From Kiritimatiellia bacterium (GTDB lineage: Bacteria; Verrucomicrobiota; Kiritimatiellia; RFP12; UBA1067), in NCBI GenBank assembly GCA_045535455.1, contig JAZSLQ010000125.1:1894-65893 (forward strand): a stretch of 64,000 bases of DNA, read 5' to 3'. Shown here in pieces: positions 4,866-64,000 of the stretch. Below the pieces are notes generated by a model, which saw only the letters and a program-made list of their open reading frames with translations, was not told where the DNA came from and made no database searches. Position 1 is the first letter of the stretch; each line of letters opens with the position of its first letter. The position numbers were made by a program, and so were the translations under genes.

Positions 4866-5022
4866 TATTGGCGCTAGCTCTTGGCGCTGGCGAAAATTTT
4901 TTCGGGGAAAGCGAGCAGACATCAGCGCGAGATCTTAGCCTACTCAACCGGGCTCCAGCCACGACTCAAAAGTGCGCATGTCCGAAACGTGTATTTACAG
5001 GTTTATTGTCCTTCGCAGACAT

Positions 5023-50958: not shown

Positions 50959-51037
50959 CTGCGATTTAGCGGGGCCGGCATTCGCCGGCCCCGCCGTATT
51001 CGGGACGGCAACAGCGCGTCCCGTCTTGGATTCGTCC

Positions 51038-51253
51038 TTACTTCGCGAGCGAATCGACGGCCTTGCCGGCTTCGTCTGCGGCCTTGTTGGCAGCTTTGTC
51101 CGCGTCCTTTGCGGCCTTGTCGGCGGCCTTCGAGAGGTCCTTGCCGGCCTGCTCCATCTTTTCGGAGAGCGTAGGCTCCTTCTTCTCGCATCCGGTGAAG
51201 AGGACGGAGGAAGCGAGAGCGGCCGCGACTGCGGCGACATACATGCACTTCAT
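51038..51253 (-). CDS. small Lys/Ala-rich lipoprotein
   Basis: Signal peptide with lipobox LFTGC, followed by a repetitive helical AADKAAKDADKAANKAADEAGKA segment. Confidence 0.55.
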   Translation of the reverse strand: MKCMYVAAVAAALASSVLFTGCEKKEPTLSEKMEQAGKDLSKAADKAAKDADKAANKAADEAGKAVDSLAK

Positions 51254-51350
51254 TTTTGTTTTCCTTTCGATTGCGAGCCGTGGCGGACACTGTGTCCGTT
51301 CCGTGCAGGCGCGAGTATTATACCATATTCCGGCCCCGGCTTTCCCGCCG

Positions 51351-52484
51351 CTATGCTTCCCGTTTCCCTTCCTTTGCCGACTGGCGGCGGTATTCGCGCA
51401 TGGTCATGCCGGTTCGCTTCAGGAAGAACCGCTTTGCGTATCCGTCCGATTCGTATCCGCTGCGCTCCACCACCATCGCGATGGGAAGTGTGCTGCTCGA
51501 CAGGAGTTCGCGCATTTTCTGTAGACGTATTTCATGGATTTCGTCTAGGATTGAACGGCCCGTTTCCTTTCTGAACCGGCTTGTCGCAAGCGCGCGCGAG
51601 CAGTTCATTTCGGCGGCGATGGCGTCAATGGAAAGTCCTGGCTCGCAGGCGTGGCGCCTGATGAACTCGCGCGCACGGCGCACACGTGCGCTGACTCCCG
51701 GAGTTGTGTCCGTGGAGCCGCGACGCACGATGCGCAGCGGGCCATAGTATTCGGTGCGTACGCTTGTGCCGTTGTCGATTTCCTCCGCGAGCATCTGGGC
51801 CATGCGCCATCCGGCGCCCTCGAAGTCGGGTTCGACGCTCGTGATGCCGGGTTTCACGGCCTCGCAGTACGCCTCGTCGTTGTCGATTCCGACGATGCGC
51901 ACTTCATCGGGCACTGAAAGCCCCACCTTTGTCGCTGCGTTATATGCCTCCATGGCGCAATAGTCGTTCGCACCGAGTATGCCACACGGTTTAGGCAAAT
52001 CCCTTAGTGTCTCTTCGAGAGACGCGAGCGCCAACGTGACAAGCGTCTGCCCGGCAGCGGCAGTATCGGACTTGAAGCGTTTAAAGCGCGCCTTGTCCCA
52101 GTGAATGCCCTTGCCTGTGCCGAGGTAGGCGTAGGATTTGCATTTGCACCTCAGGAGGTCCTTGACGGCCAATGCCGCGGAAGCGGCGGAATCGTGCAGA
52201 AGGCACGGATGTTCCTTCGACGGCATCTCGGGGTTCTGGTCGAGGTATATGGTCGGGATTCCCCTGAAGACGTTGTCGGGCGCGCTCGCCGTGCGCATTG
52301 CGCGATCCACAAGACAGCCGATGGGAGCCCATGTTTTCAGTGCTCGGCGGATATCCGAGGTGGTCGCGAATCGCTCCACGACCTGCACGAACCAGTCGCG
52401 CTCCTGTGCAAAGCGGTGGACGCCCGAGAGCTTCTGTAGCCAGCTCTTACGTGTTGTGGACTGGAAGAAAAGTACTGTTTTCAT
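51351..52484 (-). CDS. AraC/XylR-family transcriptional regulator with an N-terminal periplasmic-binding-protein-like sugar-sensing domain
   Basis: The C-terminal AraC HTH pair (GLSIDAIAAEMNCSRALATSRFRKETG...MREYR) and an N-terminal LacI/PBP-like fold. Divergent from the DUF5107/TPR gene. Confidence 0.8.
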   Translation of the reverse strand: MKTVLFFQSTTRKSWLQKLSGVHRFAQERDWFVQVVERFATTSDIRRALKTWAPIGCLVDRAMRTASAPDNVFRGIPTIYLDQNPEMPSKEHPCLLHDSAASAALAVKDLLRCKCKSYAYLGTGKGIHWDKARFKRFKSDTAAAGQTLVTLALASLEETLRDLPKPCGILGANDYCAMEAYNAATKVGLSVPDEVRIVGIDNDEAYCEAVKPGITSVEPDFEGAGWRMAQMLAEEIDNGTSVRTEYYGPLRIVRRGSTDTTPGVSARVRRAREFIRRHACEPGLSIDAIAAEMNCSRALATSRFRKETGRSILDEIHEIRLQKMRELLSSSTLPIAMVVERSGYESDGYAKRFFLKRTGMTMREYRRQSAKEGKREA

Positions 52485-52508
52485 TGTGAGTATAGCATAT
52501 CATAATCC

Positions 52509-52538
52509 TGTCCGATTGACTATGTTTTATTTGTCCTA
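52509..52538 (+). promoter_or_regulatory. conserved 30-bp cis-element TGTCCGATTGACTATGTTTTATTTGTCCTA, a candidate AraC/XylR operator
   Basis: A near-identical copy is at 58569-58598. It contains TGTCC half-sites 22 bp apart and sits about 30 bp upstream of the -10 element. Confidence 0.5.
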
Positions 52539-52564
52539 TGGGATAACACATCGAGCAGGCGTCT

Positions 52565-52573
52565 TGGTACAAT
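52565..52573 (+). promoter_or_regulatory. extended -10 promoter TGGTACAAT, near-leaderless
   Basis: Located 12 nt upstream of the ATG at 52585. Confidence 0.4.
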
Positions 52574-52584
52574 TATGGCCAGAT

Positions 52585-55500
52585 ATGAAAGCGAAGAACA
52601 GTCTGATAATTGCGATCCTTGCATCATCCGCTTTGGCATCCGCCTACGCTGGCGAGGTGTTGATGAACGAAGACACGATCGTCCTTCCGACGTATGCGCC
52701 CGGCGGATACGACAAGACGCCGCTTTTCTATACCGGGCGCGTCTACCAGGGCGCGCAGGGGCGCGTCTACCCGTATCCGATGCAGGACGTCCTGCACGAC
52801 GAGAAGTTCGACGAGACGTACAAGTACCTGACGCTCGAGAACGACTGGCTCCAGATGGGGCTTCTACCCGAGCACGGCGGGCACCTCCTCAACTTCACCG
52901 ACAAGGCGACCGGATTCGAGACGTTCTACCGCCAGCATGTCATAAAGCCCGCGCTCATCGGAATGCTCGGCGCGTGGATATCCGGCGGCGTCGAATGGAA
53001 CTTCCCGCACCACCACCGCGCGACGACGGCGATGCCCATCGACTGGCGAGCGGTCGAGAACGCGGACGGATCGAAGACGATCTGGATCGGCGAGACAGAG
53101 CTCAGGCGCCGCCTCAAGTGGACGATAGGTCTTTCGCTCCTCCCCGACCGCGCCGTGTTGAAAGCGGAGAACGTCTTCATGAACCGCCAGCCGTGGATCG
53201 AGTCGATGATCTACTGGGCAAACGTGTCCGTCCACTGTGGCGACGACTACCAGATTCTCTTTCCGCCTTCGATGCACCTCGGCTTCGACCACCACAAGAA
53301 CTACTGGACGAGCTTCCCGATCGGACCGAGGAAGGAGGAAGTCGAGCTCCTTCCGTCGCAACGCTCGAAATACGCGAACGACATCTCCGGCACGATGGAC
53401 CTCAGCTGGTGGAAGAACTTCACCATTGAATCGCGCTCCATCTTCGGCATGGATCCCGACAACTCCTTCATGGCCGGATACGACCACAAGAAACAGTGCG
53501 GTACGGCGCACGTCTCGAACAGGCACATCACCGTCGGCAAGAAGTTCTTCCTCTGGGGCAACTTCCCCGAGGCGCACGTGTGGGACAAGGTGCTTACGGA
53601 CAATGACGGACCGTATCTCGAGCTGATGGTCGGATGCTGGTCCGACAACCAGCCCGACTATTCGTGGATAGCGCCCTACGAGACGCGCAAGGTCGAGCAG
53701 TTCTGGTTCCCGGTGAAGGGGATTGGCGGCATCAAGAACGTGACGATTGACGGTGCGGTGAACGTCGACCGCCTTTCGGATGACAAGATGCTAGTCGGTT
53801 TCCACTCAACGCGCGTGCTAAAGGGGTGTACGATTACTCTCTTCAAGGATCGCGAGGCGGTCTTCGCCGAGAAGGGCGTCGCCATTGATCCGAATAGACC
53901 ATGGTGCAAGACTGTCGCCGTCGAGAATGGTGTTGCCGATCAGCGTTACACGGCTACAATCGCCGATGCTTCAGGCAAGGTATTCCTCTCCTACACGCCC
54001 GTTCCGCCGCAGGGAGACGTGGAACTGCCGCCGAAGGTGGAGAATCCGAAAGAGCCGAAGGAATACACGAGCGCCGAGCTCGCCTACGAGGTCGGTCTTC
54101 GCCTCGATCAGTTCCAGAACGGGCTCATCGATCCCGAGCCATACTACAAGAGGGCGCTCGAGATTGACCCAGACTATTCGAAGCCGAATCTTGCGATGGG
54201 CGTACGGCTGGCGAAGAACGGAAGCTACGTCGAGGCGAAGCCGTATCTAGAGAGGGCAGTTGCGCGCGCAACGCAGAACCACACGCGTGCGCTCGACGCC
54301 GCGCCGGAGTACTACCTCGCGCTCGTGGAGCGATATCTCGGCAACCTGAAGCGAGCGGAAGACCTCTTCTGGCGCTGCACCTGGCGGCTTACGCACAAGA
54401 AGGAGTCGTATGTCGAACTTGCCAGAATTGCCGCGCTCAAGGGCGACTGGACTGAGGCGCTTGCGCGAATTGACGATGCGCTTACGCTTGGGTCTGACGA
54501 GGCAAAGCTCTGGACGATGAAGGGGATATTCCTTCGGAAGTTGAAAGTTGAAAGTGAAAAGTGTAAAGTTGGGGATTCATACGGCAACTCTAAACTTTCA
54601 ACTTTAAACTTTAAACTTGCGCTCGACAGAGCGCAACAGTGCGATCCGCTGGAATATTGGGCGGTCGTGGAGCGCGACGGTTTTGCCGCGGCCGAGAAGA
54701 ATCGCGGGCTCAAGGCGCAGCAGCTTCTGGAGTGCATCAGTGACTACTGGGGAATCGGCTGCTATGACGAGGTGATCGCGCTCTGCGACGCCGCGCTTGC
54801 GAAAGCCGCCACAGAGAAGCCCTACGCTACCGAGGGCGCGCTTCCGCTCAAGGACACCATCGCCGCGTGCGACAGCTACAAGAACGCGCTCTTCGGCTAC
54901 TTCAAAGGAGCGGCGATTGAAAAGTTGAAAGTTGAAAGTGAAAAGTGTAAAGTTGAAAGGAGTGTCGACAGCAACTTTAAACTTTCCACTTTAAACTTTA
55001 AACTCGCGCAAGCGGCGTTTGCCGCCGCTGCCGCGATGCCGACGGACTACTGCTTCCCGAACCGGCTCGAAGAGGAAGAGGTTCTGAAGATCGCAGCGGT
55101 CGCCGCGCCCGAACTCGCGAACACATGGTACTACCTCGGATGCTGCGAGTGGAACCATGACCGCAAGGACGCGGGACTCTCCGACTGGAAGAAGTGCGTA
55201 GAGCTGATGCCGGAGCACGCGCTCGCTTTGCGCTGCATCGGCTTCGCTCTTTCGCATCCCGGGACGTACTTCACGAACACCGGTATTCCGTCCGGCGTGC
55301 CGAGCAAGGAAGCATACGAATACTACCTCAAGTCGCTTGCCGCCGATCCCGGCAACTTCCGCACGCTCGACGAGGCGGGCAAGCTCGCGGAGAAGCTGAA
55401 GCTCCCGGCGGCGGAACGCCTTGCGCTGATGGAGAAATATCGCGCGACGGTCGACAAGTACGATCCGTGCATTCTGCGATATGCCTACACCTTGAACGCA

Positions 55501-56127
55501 GTCGGGCGTTTCGCCGAGGCGCACGAGATACTCACAACGCGCCGCTTCCACGTATGGGAAGGAGCGGACGGACTTCTCGCGCCATTCGTCGAGTCCTGCA
55601 TCGGCCTCGGGCTCAAGGCTATGGAGGACGGCAGGGCGCTCTCGACGAGAGCGCCGGACGGCGGTTTCATCGAAACCGCCCTACCGGATGCGGCTGCCGG
55701 GAAATACCGTCTCGCTTTGGCGTATTTCGAGGAGTCGACGACTTATCCCGAAAACCTCCAGGCGGGGCGTCCGGGCGACGCAGGCACCGAGCCGAAGAGC
55801 CGCTACTTCATGGCTCAGTGCAAGAAGGCGCTGGGCGACGAGGCGGGATACCGCGCGGAGCTCGAAAACTCCCTCAAGGGATGGATCCATGCGGGCGAGA
55901 TGGACTACTGGCGCGTCAAGGCCCTGCGCGAACTCGGACGAGACGCCGAGACCGCTCCTCTCATCGCGGAAATGAAACAGGCGATAAAGGAGCTTGAGAC
56001 GCCGCAGCCCGTCGTCATCAACGCATACGCGAAGTTCGCGGGCGACAATTCTGCGATGGAGCGCGCGGCCAAGGCCCGCGAAAAGGCCGGCTTCCTCCGT
56101 TCGCTCCTCTCCGAGATCGACAGGTAG
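52585..56127 (+). CDS. large exported protein with a DUF5107-like N-terminal domain and C-terminal TPR repeats, carrying two in-frame hairpin-repeat insertions
   Basis: Signal peptide MKAKNSLIIAILASSALASAYA. The conserved N-terminal 500 aa or so is followed by TPR-like helical repeats. The low-complexity KLKVESEKCKV...KLSTLNFKL segments appear twice. Confidence 0.65.
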   Translation: MKAKNSLIIAILASSALASAYAGEVLMNEDTIVLPTYAPGGYDKTPLFYTGRVYQGAQGRVYPYPMQDVLHDEKFDETYKYLTLENDWLQMGLLPEHGGHLLNFTDKATGFETFYRQHVIKPALIGMLGAWISGGVEWNFPHHHRATTAMPIDWRAVENADGSKTIWIGETELRRRLKWTIGLSLLPDRAVLKAENVFMNRQPWIESMIYWANVSVHCGDDYQILFPPSMHLGFDHHKNYWTSFPIGPRKEEVELLPSQRSKYANDISGTMDLSWWKNFTIESRSIFGMDPDNSFMAGYDHKKQCGTAHVSNRHITVGKKFFLWGNFPEAHVWDKVLTDNDGPYLELMVGCWSDNQPDYSWIAPYETRKVEQFWFPVKGIGGIKNVTIDGAVNVDRLSDDKMLVGFHSTRVLKGCTITLFKDREAVFAEKGVAIDPNRPWCKTVAVENGVADQRYTATIADASGKVFLSYTPVPPQGDVELPPKVENPKEPKEYTSAELAYEVGLRLDQFQNGLIDPEPYYKRALEIDPDYSKPNLAMGVRLAKNGSYVEAKPYLERAVARATQNHTRALDAAPEYYLALVERYLGNLKRAEDLFWRCTWRLTHKKESYVELARIAALKGDWTEALARIDDALTLGSDEAKLWTMKGIFLRKLKVESEKCKVGDSYGNSKLSTLNFKLALDRAQQCDPLEYWAVVERDGFAAAEKNRGLKAQQLLECISDYWGIGCYDEVIALCDAALAKAATEKPYATEGALPLKDTIAACDSYKNALFGYFKGAAIEKLKVESEKCKVERSVDSNFKLSTLNFKLAQAAFAAAAAMPTDYCFPNRLEEEEVLKIAAVAAPELANTWYYLGCCEWNHDRKDAGLSDWKKCVELMPEHALALRCIGFALSHPGTYFTNTGIPSGVPSKEAYEYYLKSLAADPGNFRTLDEAGKLAEKLKLPAAERLALMEKYRATVDKYDPCILRYAYTLNAVGRFAEAHEILTTRRFHVWEGADGLLAPFVESCIGLGLKAMEDGRALSTRAPDGGFIETALPDAAAGKYRLALAYFEESTTYPENLQAGRPGDAGTEPKSRYFMAQCKKALGDEAGYRAELENSLKGWIHAGEMDYWRVKALRELGRDAETAPLIAEMKQAIKELETPQPVVINAYAKFAGDNSAMERAAKAREKAGFLRSLLSEIDR
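54541..54619 (+). repeat. inverted pair of heptamer arrays (GAAAGTT-type arm, 16-nt spacer, AACTTTM-type arm), a hairpin-forming element inside a CDS
   Basis: tgaaagt tgaaagt gaaaagt gtaaagt then the spacer, then aactcta aactttc aacttta aacttta aacttgc. Confidence 0.9.
54918..55007 (+). repeat. second inverted pair of heptamer arrays inside the same CDS
   Basis: Six forward units (tgaaaag ttgaaag ...) then a 13-nt spacer, then five reverse units (aacttta aactttc ...). Confidence 0.9.
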
Positions 56128-56320
56128 CTCGTCGGATTATAGTACCATGCTCGCCGCTTGCGGAGAGTGTGACGCCTTTTTGGCTACATGGCTGAAGCAG
56201 TCCTGGGCACAAGGGTCGTATGTTCGCATATTTGTGCCCGAACTTATTGGTGAAACGGGCACAAGTTTTGATTTGTTGTAAAGTTGTGCCCATTTACTAT
56301 TGACCAAATGCACAATTAAA

Positions 56321-56329
56321 TGATATAAT
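56321..56329 (+). promoter_or_regulatory. extended -10 promoter TGATATAAT
   Basis: Located upstream of the ATPase gene, with a GGAG at 56332-56335. Confidence 0.4.
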
Positions 56330-56339
56330 TTGCCCAAAA

Positions 56340-57785
56340 TTGGAGATAATTATGTTTGTGGGACGATTAGAAGAGCTTGATCTGCTAAAAGGACTTTGGA
56401 ATAAAGTCACAAAAACCTCGTTAGTGACGGTTAGAGGGCGAAGGCGCATTGGGAAATCGACTCTTGTTGCGCACTTTGCTGATGTCTCGAATGCACGATT
56501 TCTTAAGATTGAAGGGCTTTCGCCACGAACGGCCAAGTCGAACGCAGACCAGTTAAAGGGCTTTTATTCGCAGCTTCAGCTTCAAAGCGGAAAGACATAC
56601 GAAGTCGTTGACTGGCTTAAAGCGTTCAAGGACGTCGACGCAGAGATTGTTGACGGACAGCGGACGGTTCTTCTTTTGGACGAGATATCGTGGATGGCGT
56701 ATTACGATGCCTCTTTCCCGGGGCTTCTGAAGATTGCCTGGGATAATTTCTTTCACAAGCACCCCAATCTGATTTTGTTTCTGTGCGGGAGCGTCTCAAG
56801 TTGGATAAGGGAGAACATACTTGAGGACGGAGGTTTTCTTGGAAGGCCCTCTGCCGACATTGTGCTGAAGGAGCTTTCCGCAAGGGACTGTCTGTCTTTC
56901 TGGGGTGGTGCGGCGAAGCGCCTTTCGTCTCGTGAACTCTTCGACATGCTTTCCGTCTGCGGTGGGGTGCCGCGATATCTTGAGGAGATAGATCCGTCGC
57001 TGACCGTCGATGAATCGCTGCGTAGGTCGTGCTTTACGCCGCAGGGATACCTTTTCAGGGACTTCGACCTGATGTTCGACGAACTGTACGACAAAAGTTC
57101 GGCTGAAAGAAAGTCCGTGCTTAACGCGCTGGCGAAGAAACCGATGACTGTCAGCGAGGTTGCCGCAGCGACAGGGCGTAGTCGTAACGGACATCTTGTG
57201 GAACTTCTGAAGGATCTTGTCCAGGCAGGATTCCTCGCTCAGGAGCGCGGAATCAATCCACAAACTGGGGAGTTGCGCCAGGAAACGCGGTATCGGATAT
57301 GCGACAACTACGTGCGGTTCTATCTTCATGCCATCTTGCCGCGAAGGGCAATGATAGAGGACGGCACATATCGCTTTGAGTCATTGGAGCGACTGCCCGG
57401 ATGGGAGACGATATTGGGATTCCAGTTTGAGAATCTTGTGCTCGGTTCGTTGCCAGCGCTTGTCGCGAGGCTTCATCTCGACAGGTCGAGAATCCTCTCG
57501 ATGGCCCCATACCGCAGAACCTCGGCCGACAAGGATCGCGGTTGCCAGATAGACTGCCTTATACAGACGCGGCGGTCGATGTATGTCGTCGAGATAAAGC
57601 GGAAGGCGAATATAGGAACGGAGATAATTGACGAAGTCGAAAATAAGATTGACCGACTTGGATATTCGGGCAAAACGTCCGTAAGGCCGGTTCTTGTCTA
57701 TGACGGCAACCTTTCTCCGATGGTTGAGGAAGACGGATATTTCGCGGCGATCATTCCCGCTTCAGAATTGTTCGGACTTGACTAA
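56340..57785 (+). CDS. AAA+ ATP-binding protein (archaeal-ATPase/DUF234-type) in a lower-GC islet
   Basis: Walker A GRRRIGKST and Walker B LLLDEISW. Protein is 481 aa. The local base composition is visibly AT-richer. Confidence 0.7.
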   Translation: MEIIMFVGRLEELDLLKGLWNKVTKTSLVTVRGRRRIGKSTLVAHFADVSNARFLKIEGLSPRTAKSNADQLKGFYSQLQLQSGKTYEVVDWLKAFKDVDAEIVDGQRTVLLLDEISWMAYYDASFPGLLKIAWDNFFHKHPNLILFLCGSVSSWIRENILEDGGFLGRPSADIVLKELSARDCLSFWGGAAKRLSSRELFDMLSVCGGVPRYLEEIDPSLTVDESLRRSCFTPQGYLFRDFDLMFDELYDKSSAERKSVLNALAKKPMTVSEVAAATGRSRNGHLVELLKDLVQAGFLAQERGINPQTGELRQETRYRICDNYVRFYLHAILPRRAMIEDGTYRFESLERLPGWETILGFQFENLVLGSLPALVARLHLDRSRILSMAPYRRTSADKDRGCQIDCLIQTRRSMYVVEIKRKANIGTEIIDEVENKIDRLGYSGKTSVRPVLVYDGNLSPMVEEDGYFAAIIPASELFGLD

Positions 57786-57810
57786 CTGCCGGGAGGACCT
57801 ATCTGCGTTG

Positions 57811-58503
57811 ATGAAAATACGAAGTGGCAGAACAATTCCATGGCGGGTTGGCTGGGAGTCAATAAAGGCGAACTGGCTGCCGATGGTCGTCTTGTGGCTG
57901 CTTGCAGCGGCGTTGGTTGCGGGCTATACATACGTGCCCTGCGTTCGGGCGGCGCTGCAGCCCGTCTTCGATTTCCAGACCGGCGGAGGGTGGAAGGCGG
58001 CGGTCCTTAACAGAATCGTCTTCTGCGGACTTCTCCCCGGAGCGTTTCTGCTGACGATAAGATCGATACGACCGCCGCGTCCTCTGCTTACGGTGCTCGC
58101 CAACTGCGTGTGGATGGGGGCGTGGGGCGTTGCGAGCAATGCGTTCTTCACGCTCCAGACGCAGATGTTCGGCTCGGGGCACGACATCGCGACTCTTGTC
58201 GCAAAGGTGCTTGTCGACAAGTGCGTGTGGTCTGCGCTCCTGTGCGTTCCGCTCAACTCCGTGTTCTTCTTCTGGGAGGGGCGAGACTTCTCCCTCGCGA
58301 GGTGCCGTGCGGAATGGCCGCGCAGCTATCTGCGGCAGATATACCTCCCGATTCTTCTCGCCGATTTCTCCGTCTGGATTCCGGTGCAGTTCGCAGTGTA
58401 CATCTTTCCTCTGCCGCTCCAGATACAGCTTGTCGGCTTCGCCGGCGCATTCTGGTCCCTCGTCGGTCTCTCGTCTGGCATCCGCCTCGCACGTAGTGTG
58501 TGA
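57811..58503 (+). CDS. hypothetical integral membrane protein with about six TM segments
   Basis: The start at the internal ATG follows the ATPase stop. The protein is hydrophobic throughout. Confidence 0.45.
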   Translation: MKIRSGRTIPWRVGWESIKANWLPMVVLWLLAAALVAGYTYVPCVRAALQPVFDFQTGGGWKAAVLNRIVFCGLLPGAFLLTIRSIRPPRPLLTVLANCVWMGAWGVASNAFFTLQTQMFGSGHDIATLVAKVLVDKCVWSALLCVPLNSVFFFWEGRDFSLARCRAEWPRSYLRQIYLPILLADFSVWIPVQFAVYIFPLPLQIQLVGFAGAFWSLVGLSSGIRLARSV

Positions 58504-58568
58504 TGACATCTCGTCATGCATCGGAGGCGCAGATGCTTGCGGCGAGGTGATAGGCGGATGGGTCGTTG

Positions 58569-58598
58569 TGTCCGATAGGATATGTTTTACTTGTCCTA
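58569..58598 (+). promoter_or_regulatory. second copy of the conserved 30-bp cis-element (TGTCCGATAGGATATGTTTTACTTGTCCTA)
   Basis: 26 of 30 nt are identical to 52509-52538. Located 25 bp upstream of a -10 element. Confidence 0.5.
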
Positions 58599-58622
58599 AC
58601 GAATAGCTTTGGGGGGCTGGAA

Positions 58623-58633
58623 TGTGGTAAGAT
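58623..58633 (+). promoter_or_regulatory. extended -10-like element TGTGGTAAGAT
   Basis: Located upstream of the small ORF at 58674. Confidence 0.3.
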
Positions 58634-58673
58634 ATTGTGCGTCAGGCATGAAAATAAGAAATGTCCAAATAAC

Positions 58674-58895
58674 ATGAAAAAACTGATGATGATTGGTGGT
58701 GCGGTTGTCGCGATTCTCTCGATTGAGGCGAAGGCTTCGACGGTCGCATACTGGCCGCTTACGCAAGCGAACGGAGTGCGAACGACCTCATCCACCGTCT
58801 TCGCCAATGAGGGCGACAACTCGGCGATGGAGCGTGCGGCCAAGGCGCGCGAAAAGGCAGGCTTCCTCCGCACCCTCCTCGCAGAACTCGAGTAA
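58674..58895 (+). CDS. small secreted protein (74 aa). Its N-terminus resembles the LamG protein leader and its C-terminus resembles the DUF5107/TPR protein C-terminus. Possibly a remnant.
   Basis: ASTVAYWP is shared with the 60441-62096 protein. GDNSAMERAAKAREKAGFLR(T/S)LL is shared with residues 1300-1329 of the 52585-56127 protein, at about 85 percent nucleotide identity. Confidence 0.45.
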   Translation: MKKLMMIGGAVVAILSIEAKASTVAYWPLTQANGVRTTSSTVFANEGDNSAMERAAKAREKAGFLRTLLAELE

Positions 58896-58912
58896 CATAA
58901 AGGACAACGCGC

Positions 58913-60394
58913 ATGGGAAAATTGCTTGGACATATATCAAGTGCGGCGGCCTGCGCGGCGGCGATGCCGGCACTGGCGTTTTCCGCGATGGTGATGCCGC
59001 TTCTGCCAAAGCCGGCCGAGTGTCGCTTCACCGGAGGAACGTGCCGCAACGCGGCGGTAAAGACGGTGCTCGACAAGTCGATACCGCCGCAGGGGTATGC
59101 GCTTACCGTCGCGCCGGGCGCAATAACGATCAAATCGTCGGACGAGGCGGGCGCTTTCTACGCGCGCATGACGCTCCGCCAGCTGGAGACGAAAGACGCG
59201 AAGGGGAAGAACGTTTCGTATCCAAATTGCGAGATAAAGGACGCGCCGGCGTTCAAGTGGCGCGGCATGATGCTGGACGAAGCGCGGCACTTCTTCGGCA
59301 AGGAGGCGGTCTGCGGCATTCTCGAACGCATGGCGCAATACAAACTCAACGTCTTCCACTGGCATCTTACGGACGACCAGGGCTGGCGCATCGACATACC
59401 GGAACTCCCGGAGCTGGCGAGGAAGGGCTCATGGCGCGAAGGACGCTGCGAAAGCGAGACCCCGCTTTTCTACACGGAGAAGGATATAAAGGAGATTCTC
59501 GACTTCGCGAAGGCCCGCTACATAACCGTCGTGCCGGAAATCGATTTCCCCGGACACTTCGGCGCGGCGCTCCGGGCGTATCCGCATCTGGCTTGCGGAA
59601 CGGGCAGAAAGAATATCTTGTGTCTGGGGAATCCCGAGGCGGTCCGCTTGGCGGAAAAGGTTCTCGACAGAGTGTGCGAACTGTTCCCCGGCGAAGTCGT
59701 CCATATCGGCGGCGACGAGTGCCCGGTGGCGAACTGGGCGAAGTGTCCGAAATGCAAGGCTCTCATGGAGCGCGAGAGAATCGGAGACCTGAAGGGTCTG
59801 CAGCCGTGGCTCACGCGCCGCCTGGCCGCGCATCTCAAGAAGAAGGGCAAGCGGATGTCGGGATGGGAGGAGATTGCGGTCGGCCTGGGCAAGCTCGACA
59901 AATGGGGCGAGAGCGAAAACCTGGCCTCACTGCCCGACGAGTATCTGCCGCCGAAGTCTTCGCTCGTCATGGGCTACCATGCGCGCCCCGCGGCGCTCGC
60001 CGCGAATACCGGCTTCGACGTCGTCAGCTGCCCGACCTGGCATTGCTACTTCGACTACCAGCAGAAGCTGCCCGAAGATCCCCATCGCTACCACCGCCCG
60101 GACATAAGGTGGTGCCCGCTCGAATCCGTTTACAACTTCGATCCCTACGAAGGCGTGAATCCCCAGGCGCGCGGGCGCATCGCCGGCGTGGAATGCTGCA
60201 GCTGGACGGAGAAGACGCGCAACGTCACCGAACTCGAATGGAAAATCTGGCCGCGGACGCTGGCCTTCGCCGAAGTCGCATGGCGCAACGAAGAGCCGCA
60301 AAAGCGCGACTTCAAGGAGTTCTGCGAGCGTGCCGCCGCGCACCGCCGCCGCCTCGTCGCGGAGCACGTCAACTGCGCGCCTGTCGGGCGATAA
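58913..60394 (+). CDS. beta-N-acetylhexosaminidase, glycoside hydrolase family 20
   Basis: FKWRGMMLDEARHFF, NVFHWHLTDDQGWRIDI and VHIGGDE are the GH20 catalytic motifs. Confidence 0.88.
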   Translation: MGKLLGHISSAAACAAAMPALAFSAMVMPLLPKPAECRFTGGTCRNAAVKTVLDKSIPPQGYALTVAPGAITIKSSDEAGAFYARMTLRQLETKDAKGKNVSYPNCEIKDAPAFKWRGMMLDEARHFFGKEAVCGILERMAQYKLNVFHWHLTDDQGWRIDIPELPELARKGSWREGRCESETPLFYTEKDIKEILDFAKARYITVVPEIDFPGHFGAALRAYPHLACGTGRKNILCLGNPEAVRLAEKVLDRVCELFPGEVVHIGGDECPVANWAKCPKCKALMERERIGDLKGLQPWLTRRLAAHLKKKGKRMSGWEEIAVGLGKLDKWGESENLASLPDEYLPPKSSLVMGYHARPAALAANTGFDVVSCPTWHCYFDYQQKLPEDPHRYHRPDIRWCPLESVYNFDPYEGVNPQARGRIAGVECCSWTEKTRNVTELEWKIWPRTLAFAEVAWRNEEPQKRDFKEFCERAAAHRRRLVAEHVNCAPVGR

Positions 60395-60440: not shown

Positions 60441-62096
60441 ATGAAAAAGATGCTGATGAAAGCGGGATTGCTCGTGATATGCGCCCTGGGGGGTGGGGGA
60501 GGGATGGCCTCCACCGTCGCCTACTGGCCCATGGCCGGTGAAAACGGCGCGAGGATGCAGAAAGACGAAGTGATCCAGAACCTCGCCAATCCCGGCGTGA
60601 TGGACGCCGAAGCGGCTTATGTGCGAAGCTACTACGGGACGGTGAACGACACCTCGGCCACGCCCGTAGTCTGCTATCCGATGGGAACGAATGCGTTCCC
60701 GGAGGCATACGGCGTGTACGATCCGGCGGCGGGGGCGAACCGTGCGGCGGCGACGGGATTGGATTTCACGGCGCGGCACTTGAGCAGCAACTGGAACGGC
60801 GGCGGCAAATATTGCTGGTGGCAGGGGGTGCTGCGCGTCGAGGATCCGGATGCAATCAAGACGACGTCTTTCACAATAGAATTTTTCTTCCGTCCGGAGG
60901 AGACTTCGTCCGGGCTTTGGCAGTATCTTGCGGCGATGCCGATGAGGAATGTTGCAAACGGAAGCACTGGAACGGAGAGCTGGTCGATAGGGATCAACAA
61001 TACCAAGCAGATTTTCGCAGTGTTCGGCATGGTGGACGAGAGCGGTGCGCAGACGGGGCGCGAAACATTCAAGTCTATCGCGTTGCCGCAGATATACGAC
61101 GGGCGGTGGCATCATTTCGCGATGACGGTTGACGGCACGGCGATGAAGATGTATGTCGATTATGCATTGGCGGGGAACGGAACGCTGCCGCGAAACGTCC
61201 AATACAAGGACGACGGCGATCTGTTCATCGGCGGGACGACGCACGCGGTGTATTCGTATTATGGTTCGATGGCGCATTTCAGGATTTCGGACGAGGCGCT
61301 GGCGAGCGAGGAGTTTCTGCATTTCACGCAGACGGCGCGGTCCGAAGGGGAGGCTGCGGACGTGGCGTTGCACATAGACTTCGAGGAGGTGGAGGGGATT
61401 TCGACGAACAAGGTGTTTTTCAACAAGGCGGCGTACGGTGCGGCGGTGCATTTCGGCGCGACGAACAGCACTGCCAGCGCGGCTGCCGCCGGTCTCGACA
61501 CGGATGTGGCGGCGGGGAGGCTCTACCATTCGCACCGGGACGCGGGGGGATACGCGAACCGTGTTTCTCTGGACCACGGCGCCACCGAGGGCGGCGATCC
61601 GCACATTTCGTGGAAGCCCGGCGAAGACGTGTTTCTGGGAGGTTCGTTCACGTTCGAGATGTTCCTCAAGGCGACGGCGATCAAGGCGTGGTCGGTCGTT
61701 GCGAAGCGGCGCACGGAGGCGAGCGACAGCGACACGCAGTTCTGGATGGGCGCGAACGGCACGGCGAACGCTTTGAACTTCGGTTTTGCATCGTCGCGAT
61801 TCGGCGACAATGCGGTGGTGGACGGCGAATGGCACCACGTCGCGCTGGTGTACGACGCGGAGACGAAGAAGATGACGTACTATCGCGACCGGAAGCAGGT
61901 GGGCGAAAAGACCGCGACGGCCGGCGAGCTTGCGAAGTATTCGGTCACGAAGCCGTTGTATCTTCTTGGCGGGCAGACCGGCGGGGATGGGACGGTGTGC
62001 AAGATCGACGAAGTGCGGCTGACGAAGCGGGCGCTTTCGCCGAGGGAGTTTCTTTCGGCGGAGGGGTTGAAAGGGTTCATGATCATCTTCAAATGA
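60441..62096 (+). CDS. secreted protein with two LamG/concanavalin-A-like lectin domains
   Basis: Signal peptide present. DGRWHHFAMTVDGTAMKMYVD and DGEWHHVALVYDAETKKMTYYRD are LamG/pentraxin-like core motifs. Confidence 0.75.
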   Translation: MKKMLMKAGLLVICALGGGGGMASTVAYWPMAGENGARMQKDEVIQNLANPGVMDAEAAYVRSYYGTVNDTSATPVVCYPMGTNAFPEAYGVYDPAAGANRAAATGLDFTARHLSSNWNGGGKYCWWQGVLRVEDPDAIKTTSFTIEFFFRPEETSSGLWQYLAAMPMRNVANGSTGTESWSIGINNTKQIFAVFGMVDESGAQTGRETFKSIALPQIYDGRWHHFAMTVDGTAMKMYVDYALAGNGTLPRNVQYKDDGDLFIGGTTHAVYSYYGSMAHFRISDEALASEEFLHFTQTARSEGEAADVALHIDFEEVEGISTNKVFFNKAAYGAAVHFGATNSTASAAAAGLDTDVAAGRLYHSHRDAGGYANRVSLDHGATEGGDPHISWKPGEDVFLGGSFTFEMFLKATAIKAWSVVAKRRTEASDSDTQFWMGANGTANALNFGFASSRFGDNAVVDGEWHHVALVYDAETKKMTYYRDRKQVGEKTATAGELAKYSVTKPLYLLGGQTGGDGTVCKIDEVRLTKRALSPREFLSAEGLKGFMIIFK

Positions 62097-62122: not shown

Positions 62123-64000
62123 ATGTTTAGAGTGCAGGGAGCGCAGGGAAGGCGCGGAGTTCCACAGGGTCCGTCTTCACGGGGTTTGCAGAGGTTTTGC
62201 GTTTTTTTGCGGGGCTTCTGCGGGTTCCTTGTTCCGAACATGTTTTCCATTGCGGCGGCGGGGGGGCTCGAGGAGGGGTTTCGCTCGCCGCCGCCGGGTG
62301 CGCGGCCGCAGGTGGTGTACACGATAATGAACGGCAACGCGACGAAGGAAGGGTTGACGCTGGACTTCGAGGCGATGGCGGAGGCGGGGATCGGGGGTAT
62401 GCAGATATTCGACGTCGGGTGCGACGTGCCGGCGGGGGCGCTGGAGTTCAACACTCCGGAATGGTTCGATTTGATGCGGCACGCGCATTGCGAGGCGAAG
62501 AGGCTGGGGCTTGCGATGGGGGTGGCGAACTGTTCGGGGTGGTCGGCGTCCGGGGGCCCTTGGGTGAAGCCGGAGGACGCGATGAAGGTGGTCGTAGCCG
62601 CCGAAACCTCAGTGAAAGGCCCGTCGCGCTTTTCCGGAGCCCTTGCGCGCACGAAGAATGACAACGGCTTTTACGAGGACATAGCCGTCCTCGCATACCC
62701 GACGCCGGAGAAAGGCGCGTGGATCGCGGACTTGCCGGCGAAGTGCGGCAAGGTCCGCAAAACAGGATTCAAACGCCAGCCGAAGGCGTTCGCGCCGGAA
62801 GAGGTCGTGGCGAAAGATGCGATACGCGACCTTTCCGGGCGCATGGCGCCGGACGGGACGCTTGACTGGGACGTGCCGGAAGGGGATTGGACCATTCTGC
62901 GCGTCGGGTTCGTCTGCAACGGGAAGAAGAACCATCCGGCGTCGAAGAACGGATGGGGGTTGGAGGTGGACAAGTTTTCGGAGGGGGCGCTTGGGAGGCA
63001 TTTCGAGGGGTACGCGGGGAGGCTTTGCCGGGAGCTTGGGGTAAGCGCGGCGACGGACAACCGGACGGGTTTGGGGAACGTGCATGTGGATTCGTGGGAA
63101 GTCGGATGCCAGAATTGGACGCGTGGGCTGGAGGGGGAGTTCGAGAAGCGCGCGGGGTATCCGATAACGCCGTATCTGCCGGTCTTCGCAGGGCGCGTCG
63201 TCGGGTCGGTCGAAGAGACGGAGCGGTTCCTCGCATCGTTCCGGCGCGTGCTGGCGGAGCTTTTCGAGGAGCGGCATGTCCGTGCGCTGGCGCGGCTCTG
63301 CCATGAAAACGGTTTGACGCTTTCGGCGGAGCCGTACGGCAACAGCAATGCGGACAACATCGCCTTTGCGCGGGAGCTGGACGAGCCGATGGGATGCTTC
63401 TGGGCGAAGGGGACGTGCGGGAGCGGATGGGATTTCGACAACACGCACGCGGTGGCGGCGGTGGCGCGCGTTTTGGGGAAGCGGATAGTGGCGGTGGAGG
63501 CGTGCACGTCGGGCCCGCCCGGCGGGGGGCGGTGGCTGGAGACGCCGTATTCGGTGAAAGCGGATTGCGACCGTTCGTTCGCGGCGGGGGGCAACAGGTT
63601 TTGTTTCCACCGCTACGCGCACCAGCCGTGGACCGCTCCGCCGCGTATGCCGGGGATGACGATGGGACGCTGGGGGATGCATCTCGAACGGACGCAGACC
63701 TGGTGGCCGTACGCGAAGGGGTTTTTCGAGTACGTCGCGCGGTGCCAGTGGATGCTGCAGGAAGGGAAGGGGGCGGCGGACGTATTGTACTGGTGCGGCG
63801 ACGCCTCCCCGAACGACGGCACGGCGAAAGTTTCGCTCCCTGCCGGCTTCGACTACGACATTTGCGATACGAAGGCGCTGGAGGCGATGCGTTGCGCGGG
63901 CGGCCGCCTCGTCGCGCCAAGCGGCGCGGAATATCGTCTGCTCGTGCTGCCGAAGGGGGCGCGGCGTCCCGCCGCCTGCAAGGAAGACTGGCCGTGCGCG
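62123..64000 (+). CDS. glycoside hydrolase, 3' truncated by the window edge, possibly GH106-like
   Basis: A frame with no stop runs from the ATG at 62123 to the window end. The ORF track did not list it because it has no stop. ARPQVVYTIMNGNATKEGLTLDFEAMAEAGIGGMQIFDVG resembles the N-terminal block of GH106-type hydrolases. A GGAG Shine-Dalgarno is present. Confidence 0.55.
   Translation, partial: MFRVQGAQGRRGVPQGPSSRGLQRFCVFLRGFCGFLVPNMFSIAAAGGLEEGFRSPPPGARPQVVYTIMNGNATKEGLTLDFEAMAEAGIGGMQIFDVGCDVPAGALEFNTPEWFDLMRHAHCEAKRLGLAMGVANCSGWSASGGPWVKPEDAMKVVVAAETSVKGPSRFSGALARTKNDNGFYEDIAVLAYPTPEKGAWIADLPAKCGKVRKTGFKRQPKAFAPEEVVAKDAIRDLSGRMAPDGTLDWDVPEGDWTILRVGFVCNGKKNHPASKNGWGLEVDKFSEGALGRHFEGYAGRLCRELGVSAATDNRTGLGNVHVDSWEVGCQNWTRGLEGEFEKRAGYPITPYLPVFAGRVVGSVEETERFLASFRRVLAELFEERHVRALARLCHENGLTLSAEPYGNSNADNIAFARELDEPMGCFWAKGTCGSGWDFDNTHAVAAVARVLGKRIVAVEACTSGPPGGGRWLETPYSVKADCDRSFAAGGNRFCFHRYAHQPWTAPPRMPGMTMGRWGMHLERTQTWWPYAKGFFEYVARCQWMLQEGKGAADVLYWCGDASPNDGTAKVSLPAGFDYDICDTKALEAMRCAGGRLVAPSGAEYRLLVLPKGARRPAACKEDWPCA

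Follow-up and report, generated by a model that had tools for sequence, protein, structure and literature searches.

A 64,000-nucleotide stretch of DNA from a Kiritimatiellia bacterium (assembly GCA_045535455.1, contig JAZSLQ010000125.1, positions 1,894 to 65,893; hereafter the window) carries two copies of a 37-bp tandem-repeat element, each set upstream of an extended -10 promoter box and both lying near the gene of a XylR-type transcriptional regulator. These elements are probably the operators of that regulator, through which it would activate the neighboring genes for exported glycan-active proteins in a sugar-dependent manner. Binding of the regulator to the sites, activation rather than repression and the sensing of a glycan product are all deduced from sequence. 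A local sugar-utilization switch of this kind appears well supported but ordinary, and would involve no new mechanism.

Guts and sediments harbor abundant Kiritimatiellae, glycan degraders most of which have not been cultured. The system described here would place the XylR-type design (a 37-bp tandem operator by the -35 position) far outside the Proteobacteria, and it offers a concrete, testable regulator-operator pair with a 14-nt half-site consensus, an exact promoter geometry and predicted transcription starts at about 52580 and 58640. The system also connects an uncharacterized DUF5107/TPR protein family with a glycan-degradation module of glycoside hydrolases (GH20, GH29, GH16, GH123, GH106) and LamG proteins, a link that could guide substrate discovery and the interpretation of metatranscriptomes.

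Architecture of the Putative Operators

An earlier note on this DNA had reported two similar 30-mers with TGTCC direct repeats, and both are present on the + strand, TGTCCGATTGACTATGTTTTATTTGTCCTA at 52509–52538 and TGTCCGATAGGATATGTTTTACTTGTCCTA at 58569–58598, with 26 of 30 positions identical. The full element is 7 nt longer than the 30-mer and ends at 52545 in the first copy (operator 1, 52509..52545, + strand) and at 58605 in the second (operator 2, 58569..58605, + strand). When the copies are compared in ungapped register, likeness is limited to the element and the extended -10 box, and falls to background level on either side and in the spacer between them. Among the related contigs that were compared (designated by L numbers), orthologous copies of operator 1 occur in L001, L002 and L011/L022, and those of operator 2 in L013, L015 and L027.

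Each element consists of two tandem 14-nt units with the consensus TGTCCnATnGRMTA. The direct orientation of the repeats proposed in the note stands, whereas TGTCC is only the beginning of the repeated unit, the second TGTCC of the 30-mer being the start of the second unit. The proposed half-site spacing of 22 bp has to be corrected to 23 bp: the pentamers start at positions 1 and 24 and are separated by 18 nt, and a search for TGTCC-N17-TGTCC missed both sites. In operator 1 the distal unit (52509–52522, TGTCCGATTGACTA) is followed by a T-rich linker and the proximal unit (52532–52545, TGTCCTATGGGATA); in operator 2 the distal and proximal units lie at 58569–58582 (TGTCCGATAGGATA) and 58592–58605 (TGTCCTAACGAATA), all on the + strand. 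Across 16 compared units T1, C4, A7, G10, T13, and A14 are invariant, with one variation each at G2, T3, C5, and T8. The second unit is plainer in distant loci than in the window (e.g., TGTCCGATTGGCTA...TGTCCAATCGACTA in L005). The unit comprises two boxes about one helical turn apart, which fits the expectation for a single AraC-type domain with two helix-turn-helix (HTH) motifs.

The 30-mer consensus, allowing up to three mismatches, occurs at these two places only in the window and has no match in 100 dinucleotide-preserving shuffles. Scans with a position weight matrix (PWM), with or without the requirement for a -10 box, found no single unit or tandem pair in the window beyond both operators. 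The -10-filtered scan for tandem pairs returned none in 30 shuffled windows, and an earlier unfiltered scan 0.04 pairs per shuffled window. Other TGTCC pairs (at 4979, 7023, 22347, 48269, and 58902) have different spacings, lie mostly in coding sequence and receive no PWM score, and were taken as chance occurrences.

Promoter Geometry

The promoter behind operator 1 has its extended -10 box at 52565..52573 (+ strand, TGGTACAAT), the hexamer beginning 36 nt past the first base of the proximal unit; the start codon of the DUF5107/TPR gene follows 11 nt past the box, leaving a very short leader. The second promoter (58625..58633, + strand, TGGTAAGAT) shows the same 36-nt offset. The TG of the extended -10 lies 26 nt past the 30-mer in both copies, within the 25–30 bp estimated previously. 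If a 17-bp spacer is assumed, the hexamer expected as -35 coincides with the 3′ edge of the proximal unit; its sequence there is AACACA or ATCTTT, which agree with TTGACA at 3 and 1 of 6 positions, so that neither regulated promoter has a usable -35 element. The earlier assignment to AraC-family direct-repeat operators agrees with this layout, a tandem direct repeat with its proximal copy over the -35 position. A proximal half-site at a poor -35 and in fixed helical phase is also what characterizes class II sites of the AraC/XylS type.

The offset is kept throughout the family. In 15 of 16 distinct pattern-matched sites the proximal-unit start and the -10 hexamer are 36 nt apart, the exception being L015 (35 nt), and in L007 this distance is retained in spite of a 1-nt insertion between the units (period 24). 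The hexamer of the 36-nt sites is TAnnnT (TATAAA in one), nearly always after TGn, and the 19–22 nt between operator and -10 vary freely. The 36-nt offset, the -10 box and the T-rich linker lay outside the search pattern, while the positions specified in the pattern are conserved by construction. In a profile anchored on the -10, information content is confined to -59 to -22 and to TGnTAnAAT.

The Regulator and its Own Promoter

The regulator (377 aa) is encoded at 51351..52484 on the - strand and adjoins operator 1, as the note had placed it, in divergent position. Its N-terminal part matches Peripla_BP_3 (E=5e-21, residues 110–258), a LacI/GalR-type sugar-binding domain, and its C-terminal part HTH_18 (E=7e-15, residues 289–368) and HTH_AraC (residues 275–317); Pfam also bore out the other gene calls made previously (DUF5107/TPR, GH20, LamG, and GH106). 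The protein has no N-terminal LacI HTH and begins directly in the Peripla_BP_3 fold. The best match in the PDB is Escherichia coli XylR (4FE4/4FE7, E=3e-23), the alignment spanning regulator residues 156–368 only, against XylR 174–386. In sequence terms the protein counts as XylR-type, with a sugar domain like that of periplasmic binding proteins (PBP) and no LacI HTH, an AraC two-HTH domain and a direct-repeat operator of about 37 bp by the -35. No NCBIfam equivalog cutoff was reached. No identical protein is on record. Orthologs form a series of 97–57% identity, and by named homologs and genome records the lineage belongs to the Kiritimatiellae, represented by metagenome-assembled genomes (MAGs) of rumen and colon.

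The regulator gene has its own extended -10 box at 52489..52497 (- strand, TGCTATACT), 4 nt before its ATG and 14 nt from the distal unit of operator 1; L005, L017, L023, and L039 have equivalent boxes at a distance of 9–11 nt. The corresponding -35 position falls within the distal unit, and on account of this overlap with the -35/spacer region the regulator probably controls its own gene.

Conservation Across Related Loci

The contigs compared include those of regulator homologs with 89, 82, 66, and 65% identity, plus further metagenome loci. On all contigs with the 89, 82, 66, and 65% regulators the element is found upstream of the regulator-adjacent operon. An element of the same geometry precedes operons with DUF5107/TPR, LamG, GH20, GH29/GH16, and GH123 genes in flanking DNA that is unalignable, and it persists at regulator identities of 61–68% (L005, L009, L017, L023, L024, L039). 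Where the regulators are 58–61% identical (L044, L045, L048) DUF5107 is once more the divergently oriented neighbor, the period is 22–23 bp and the offset 36–37 nt. PWM pairs were obtained in L044 and L047/L048 and, before another gene, one in L045, whose regulator-adjacent site, displaced by 1 nt, was identified by eye. Half-sites have drifted in these loci (e.g., TGCCCAATTGAGGT, CGTCCTATCGGGCA). In the regulators with TGCCC-type half-sites (L044, L045, L048) both predicted recognition helices have residues unlike those of the other regulators (for instance CSR[AS]LAT[SK][RQ]F vs. CSRR[LM][AG]T[LI][LQ]F), a suggestive indication that half-site and helices co-vary.

In all family loci with enough flanking sequence a regulator ortholog lies within about 1.5 kb of the site, or else the site has the arrangement of operator 2, downstream of DUF5107. 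The pairing of operator and regulator is kept while the first gene after the site varies (DUF5107, LamG or an 822-aa protein of unknown function), as do the later ones: GH20, a GH29/GH16 fusion, GH16, GH123, a fusion with weak matches to Cellulase (PF00150) and Abhydrolase_1, and esterases. In the loci read, the regulon is small and local, with one or two promoters near the regulator (two sites each in L009 and L045). In related genomes the element is conserved together with the regulator and glycoside-hydrolase operons, which supports the glycan-utilization regulon put forward in the note.

For wider searches a degenerate tandem pattern of about 39 bits was used, which matches all eight sites then known. 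Across 596 Gb of species-representative genomes it matched four contigs, with one site each, all from this lineage (Kiritimatiellae-type MAGs); two of them had already been fetched as regulator-homolog loci. The note had named occurrence of the motif at random positions as evidence against a regulon; there are no extra copies in the window, the 596-Gb matches are lineage-specific only, and in both the motif is found only at promoters of related genes. In metagenomes 29 stretches matched. Those with a period of 23 bp are all family sites with the -10 in place, except one in L043 (soil contig Ga0114129_10115541, 1912–1948, - strand, TGTCTGATCGGATAACGTTTCGATGGCCGATTGGATA), where a TATAAT stands 11 nt further downstream than in the family; the site may serve another regulator as a related operator, or be a chance match. 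Those with a period of 24 bp, apart from the family variant L007, are satellites or phage iterons without the -10. The GGGATATCCCAT-type matches were set aside as satellites and not operators. The TRTCYGATYGGATAACCC arrays of L030 (7090–7200; also L020, L021, L026, L034, L040) were rejected as lambda-type origin iterons unrelated to the operator: they have at least four repeats with a 24-bp period and, in L030, lie within a phage replication-protein-O gene beside an IstB/DnaC-like gene. These iterons resemble the proximal half-site of the operator.

Comparison with Known Systems

In E. coli, XylR acts at two promoters whose sigma-70 elements are poor. Each has an operator of about 37 bp with two direct repeats beside the -35; binding requires xylose, and XylR can loop the DNA between both sites (PMC3561964). 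The present system resembles XylR and its IA/IF operators in the combination of a LacI/GalR-type sugar domain with a C-terminal AraC two-HTH domain, in operator length and direct repeats at the -35, and in the presence of two promoters near the regulator gene. It differs in operator sequence (TGTCCnATnGRMTA vs. gaAa-a-a-AAT), in arrangement (operators 6 kb apart and co-directional vs. 360 bp apart and divergent) and in targets (exported glycoside hydrolases, LamG and DUF5107 proteins vs. xylAB/xylFGH). At the loci examined there are no genes for xylose isomerase, xylose kinase or a xylose transporter. Operator sequence, targets and the lack of an NCBIfam equivalog match rule out an orthologous xylose regulon.

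XylS, RhaS, MelR, and AraC are activators with this kind of operator geometry. The half-sites of XylS (TGCA-N6-GGNTA) and AraC (TAGC-N7-TCCATA) are bipartite, their two boxes being set about one helical turn from each other. The elements described here share with the class II sites of XylS, AraC, and RhaS the bipartite half-sites, the two direct repeats with the proximal one at a weak -35, and a divergent regulator gene with probable autoregulation. They are distinguished by a period of 23 bp instead of the usual 21, by a PBP-type sensing domain in place of the cupin/AraC type, and by extended -10 promoters with very short leaders.

Comparative-genomics regulon reconstructions have reportedly been made for sugar-utilization regulators, such as those of rhamnose regulons, and the present case is similar in linking a set of carbohydrate-utilization genes, through a motif conserved upstream of them, to a regulator encoded nearby. 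Literature searches yielded no such reconstruction for Kiritimatiellae or DUF5107-associated loci, and searches on Kiritimatiellae/AraC regulons, gene regulation and DUF5107 gave nothing relevant.

Proposed Mode of Action and Alternative Explanations

By analogy with other AraC-family proteins, each unit would accommodate one DNA-binding domain, its two HTHs lying in adjacent major grooves, and each operator one dimer. The proximal unit ends at the -35 position, and its first base lies 36 nt before an extended -10 that has no -35 partner, which suggests that the regulator replaces the -35 contact: in its sugar-loaded form it would occupy the two units, stand in for that contact and recruit RNA polymerase in a class II-type manner, like XylR, XylS, AraC, and RhaS. 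Activation would switch on the exported DUF5107/TPR protein and the GH20-LamG-GH106 operon, and the regulator bound at site 1 would also control its own divergent promoter. The downstream genes form a coherent set of exported glycan-active proteins (GH20, GH106, LamG, GH29/GH16, GH123, esterases, DUF5107). Judging from the regulated enzymes, which point to amino sugar, fucose and rhamnose glycan types, the inducer is likely a breakdown product of a glycan with N-acetylglucosamine or N-acetylgalactosamine (GlcNAc/GalNAc), fucose or rhamnose, for example a host-type or microbial heteroglycan. Glucuronate, named as a substrate in the note, receives no support, as there are no uronate-related genes at any locus examined.

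Several observations weigh against this interpretation. The operator sequence is unlike the E. coli XylR consensus. The core of the unit is partly dyad-symmetric (pairs 1–14, 5–10, and 7–8) and could in principle be recognized by a symmetric dimer of another family. The co-variation of half-sites and recognition helices probably goes back to one split in evolution. The extended -10 boxes deviate little from consensus (many relatives have TGGTATAAT). Since promoters of this kind are able to work with neither a -35 nor an activator, a protein that covers -59 to -23 might just as well repress them. Finally, not every member of the DUF5107 family is under operator control: the DUF5107 gene at the end of the LamG-GH29/GH16 operon of L017 has its own TGGTATAAT box and no recognizable second operator before it.

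That L017 gene (region 820–940, - strand) is 91% identical to the DUF5107 gene of the window over residues 27–270, while the regulator of the same operon is only 66% identical to that of the window. This suggests either paralogous regulator/operon sets or recombination of DUF5107 between such sets.

Repression is a real, if unlikely, alternative and the most probable of those considered. The sugar-free regulator would block strong, activator-independent extended -10 promoters and the sugar would release it, a mode compatible with boxes that read TGGTATAAT or TGATATAAT in most relatives, with the use of the same box by other window promoters apparently without an operator, and with a site that spans -59 to -23. 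A simple roadblock, however, needs no invariant 36-nt offset across unalignable spacers, and this offset favors activation over occlusion. At least one unregulated promoter of the window has a -35 (TTGACC at 56300) whereas the regulated ones have none, and AraC-family proteins with this operator geometry are generally activators. Moreover, binding of DNA by E. coli XylR requires its sugar (PMC3561964).

A transcription factor encoded elsewhere, such as a dimeric HTH protein on the partly palindromic core, might also be the one that binds, with the XylR-type gene a bystander or itself co-regulated. The partial dyad T-N3-C-N-AT-N-G-N3-A in each unit would suit such a factor, and some proximal units are near-perfect palindromes (e.g., TATCCTATTGGATA in L002); but positions 2–4 and 11–13 are conserved and yet asymmetric, and 11 of 14 sites are fitted better by the direct than by the inverted orientation. 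The element, furthermore, accompanies the regulator through several gene arrangements, shifts when the recognition helices of the regulator shift, and occurs at one or two sites per locus with none elsewhere in the 64 kb, all of which make an unrelated factor very improbable.

It is scarcely credible that the elements are a leftover of segmental duplication or recombination without specific protein binding, or an upstream element of an alternative sigma factor: the region is indeed recombinogenic (a small open reading frame (ORF) is chimeric and contains a duplicate of the DUF5107 3′ end, and close relatives have different cargo at site 2), but the match between the two copies ends abruptly with the element and the -10, flanks and spacer being unrelated, the element is kept at 58–68% regulator identity where neutral DNA is unalignable, the -10 is that of a sigma-70 extended -10 promoter, and the block is too far upstream (its center beyond -35) and too long (37 bp) for a -35 element. 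An RNA element was also considered and dropped, as an Rfam search by E-value of 51000–60000 gave only two sub-threshold matches to miRNA families, both within the DUF5107 gene.

Predicted Target Genes and Genomic Context

The first predicted target, the exported DUF5107/TPR protein (1180 aa, 52585..56127, + strand; Pfam and synteny), is found with the regulator more constantly than any other protein in the loci compared. Its only solved relative, 5CD6, is an uncharacterized TPR-domain protein, and neither solved structures nor NCBIfam provided a function for DUF5107. Behind operator 2 the order is a small ORF (58674..58895), a GH20 β-N-acetylhexosaminidase-family enzyme (58913..60394; Pfam E=1.7e-92) that starts 18 nt past the small ORF with a Shine-Dalgarno-like sequence, an exported protein with two LamG (Laminin_G_3) domains (60441..62096; Pfam) and a GH106 enzyme of the α-L-rhamnosidase family (62123..64000; Pfam E=2.8e-146) that runs off the window, all on the + strand. 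The genes past the regulator are of the housekeeping type (ThiF, fumarase, aminotransferase).

The small ORF is a chimera of LamG and DUF5107. Its first ~29 codons correspond to the signal-peptide 5′ end of a LamG gene (considered together with 60441–60533), and positions 58811–58891 are 85% identical to 56040–56120, the 3′ end of the DUF5107 gene. In relatives LamG is the first gene past the operator. Window positions 57532–58760 are 94.8% identical to L013 1–1229, and in L013/UBA3624 an intact LamG gene is driven from this same promoter. By this comparison the small ORF is a recombination scar ahead of an inserted GH20 block, and a block of ~1.75 kb (DUF5107 tail, GH20 and a new LamG 5′ end) seems to have recombined into LamG, with the consequence that the cargo behind the conserved operator and promoter differs between close relatives.

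These differences in cargo raise a broader and still doubtful idea. In the window the GH20 block with its DUF5107 tail is inserted at LamG codon ~29; in UBA3624 a LamG-GH20-GH16-esterase series stands behind the same site; and in L017 LamG is followed by a GH29/GH16 fusion and more genes, ending in DUF5107. The operator-promoter cassette and the signal-peptide 5′ end might thus serve as a conserved “socket” that receives different GH cargo by recombination from strain to strain, the DUF5107/TPR protein may be a glycan-active enzyme or binder that makes or captures the inducer, and a single regulator dimer might loop the operators as XylR does.

The two regulated units are separated by an AAA ATPase gene (56340–57785; ATPase_2/AAA_14/HTH_20) and an ORF of unknown function (orf269, 269 aa, 57694–58503). 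The ATPase region has a lower GC content (0.525 over 56001–58000), and the gene has its own promoter (TTGACC-18-TGATATAAT, 56300–56329). In L015 neither gene is present at the corresponding position (DUF5107 is followed there by the site, LamG, and GH20), and both appear to have been inserted between the regulated units. ATPase genes of the AAA_14/DUF4143 type recur beside the loci (L005 15278–16621; L009 8663–9985 and 13662–14975; L037 4373–5758), and may be mobile or selfish.

A mini-ORF (58649–58672, ATGAAAATAAGAAATGTCCAAATAA, MKIRNVQI*) begins 15 nt past the -10 of the second promoter, and a single base separates its end from the ATG of the small ORF. It is kept with small changes in L013 and L015, and could be a leader peptide or a chance frame.

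Consensus extended -10 boxes (TGRTATAAT-like) stand 4–13 nt before the start codons of long ORFs at 2663, 10350, 30786, 46421, 52565, and 56321 (+ strand) and at 52489–52497 (- strand), the distance being 7–13 nt at six window promoters, while the internal operon genes GH20, LamG, and GH106 have Shine-Dalgarno-like sequences. This pattern suggests that leaderless or near-leaderless mRNAs are widespread for the first genes of transcription units in this genome.

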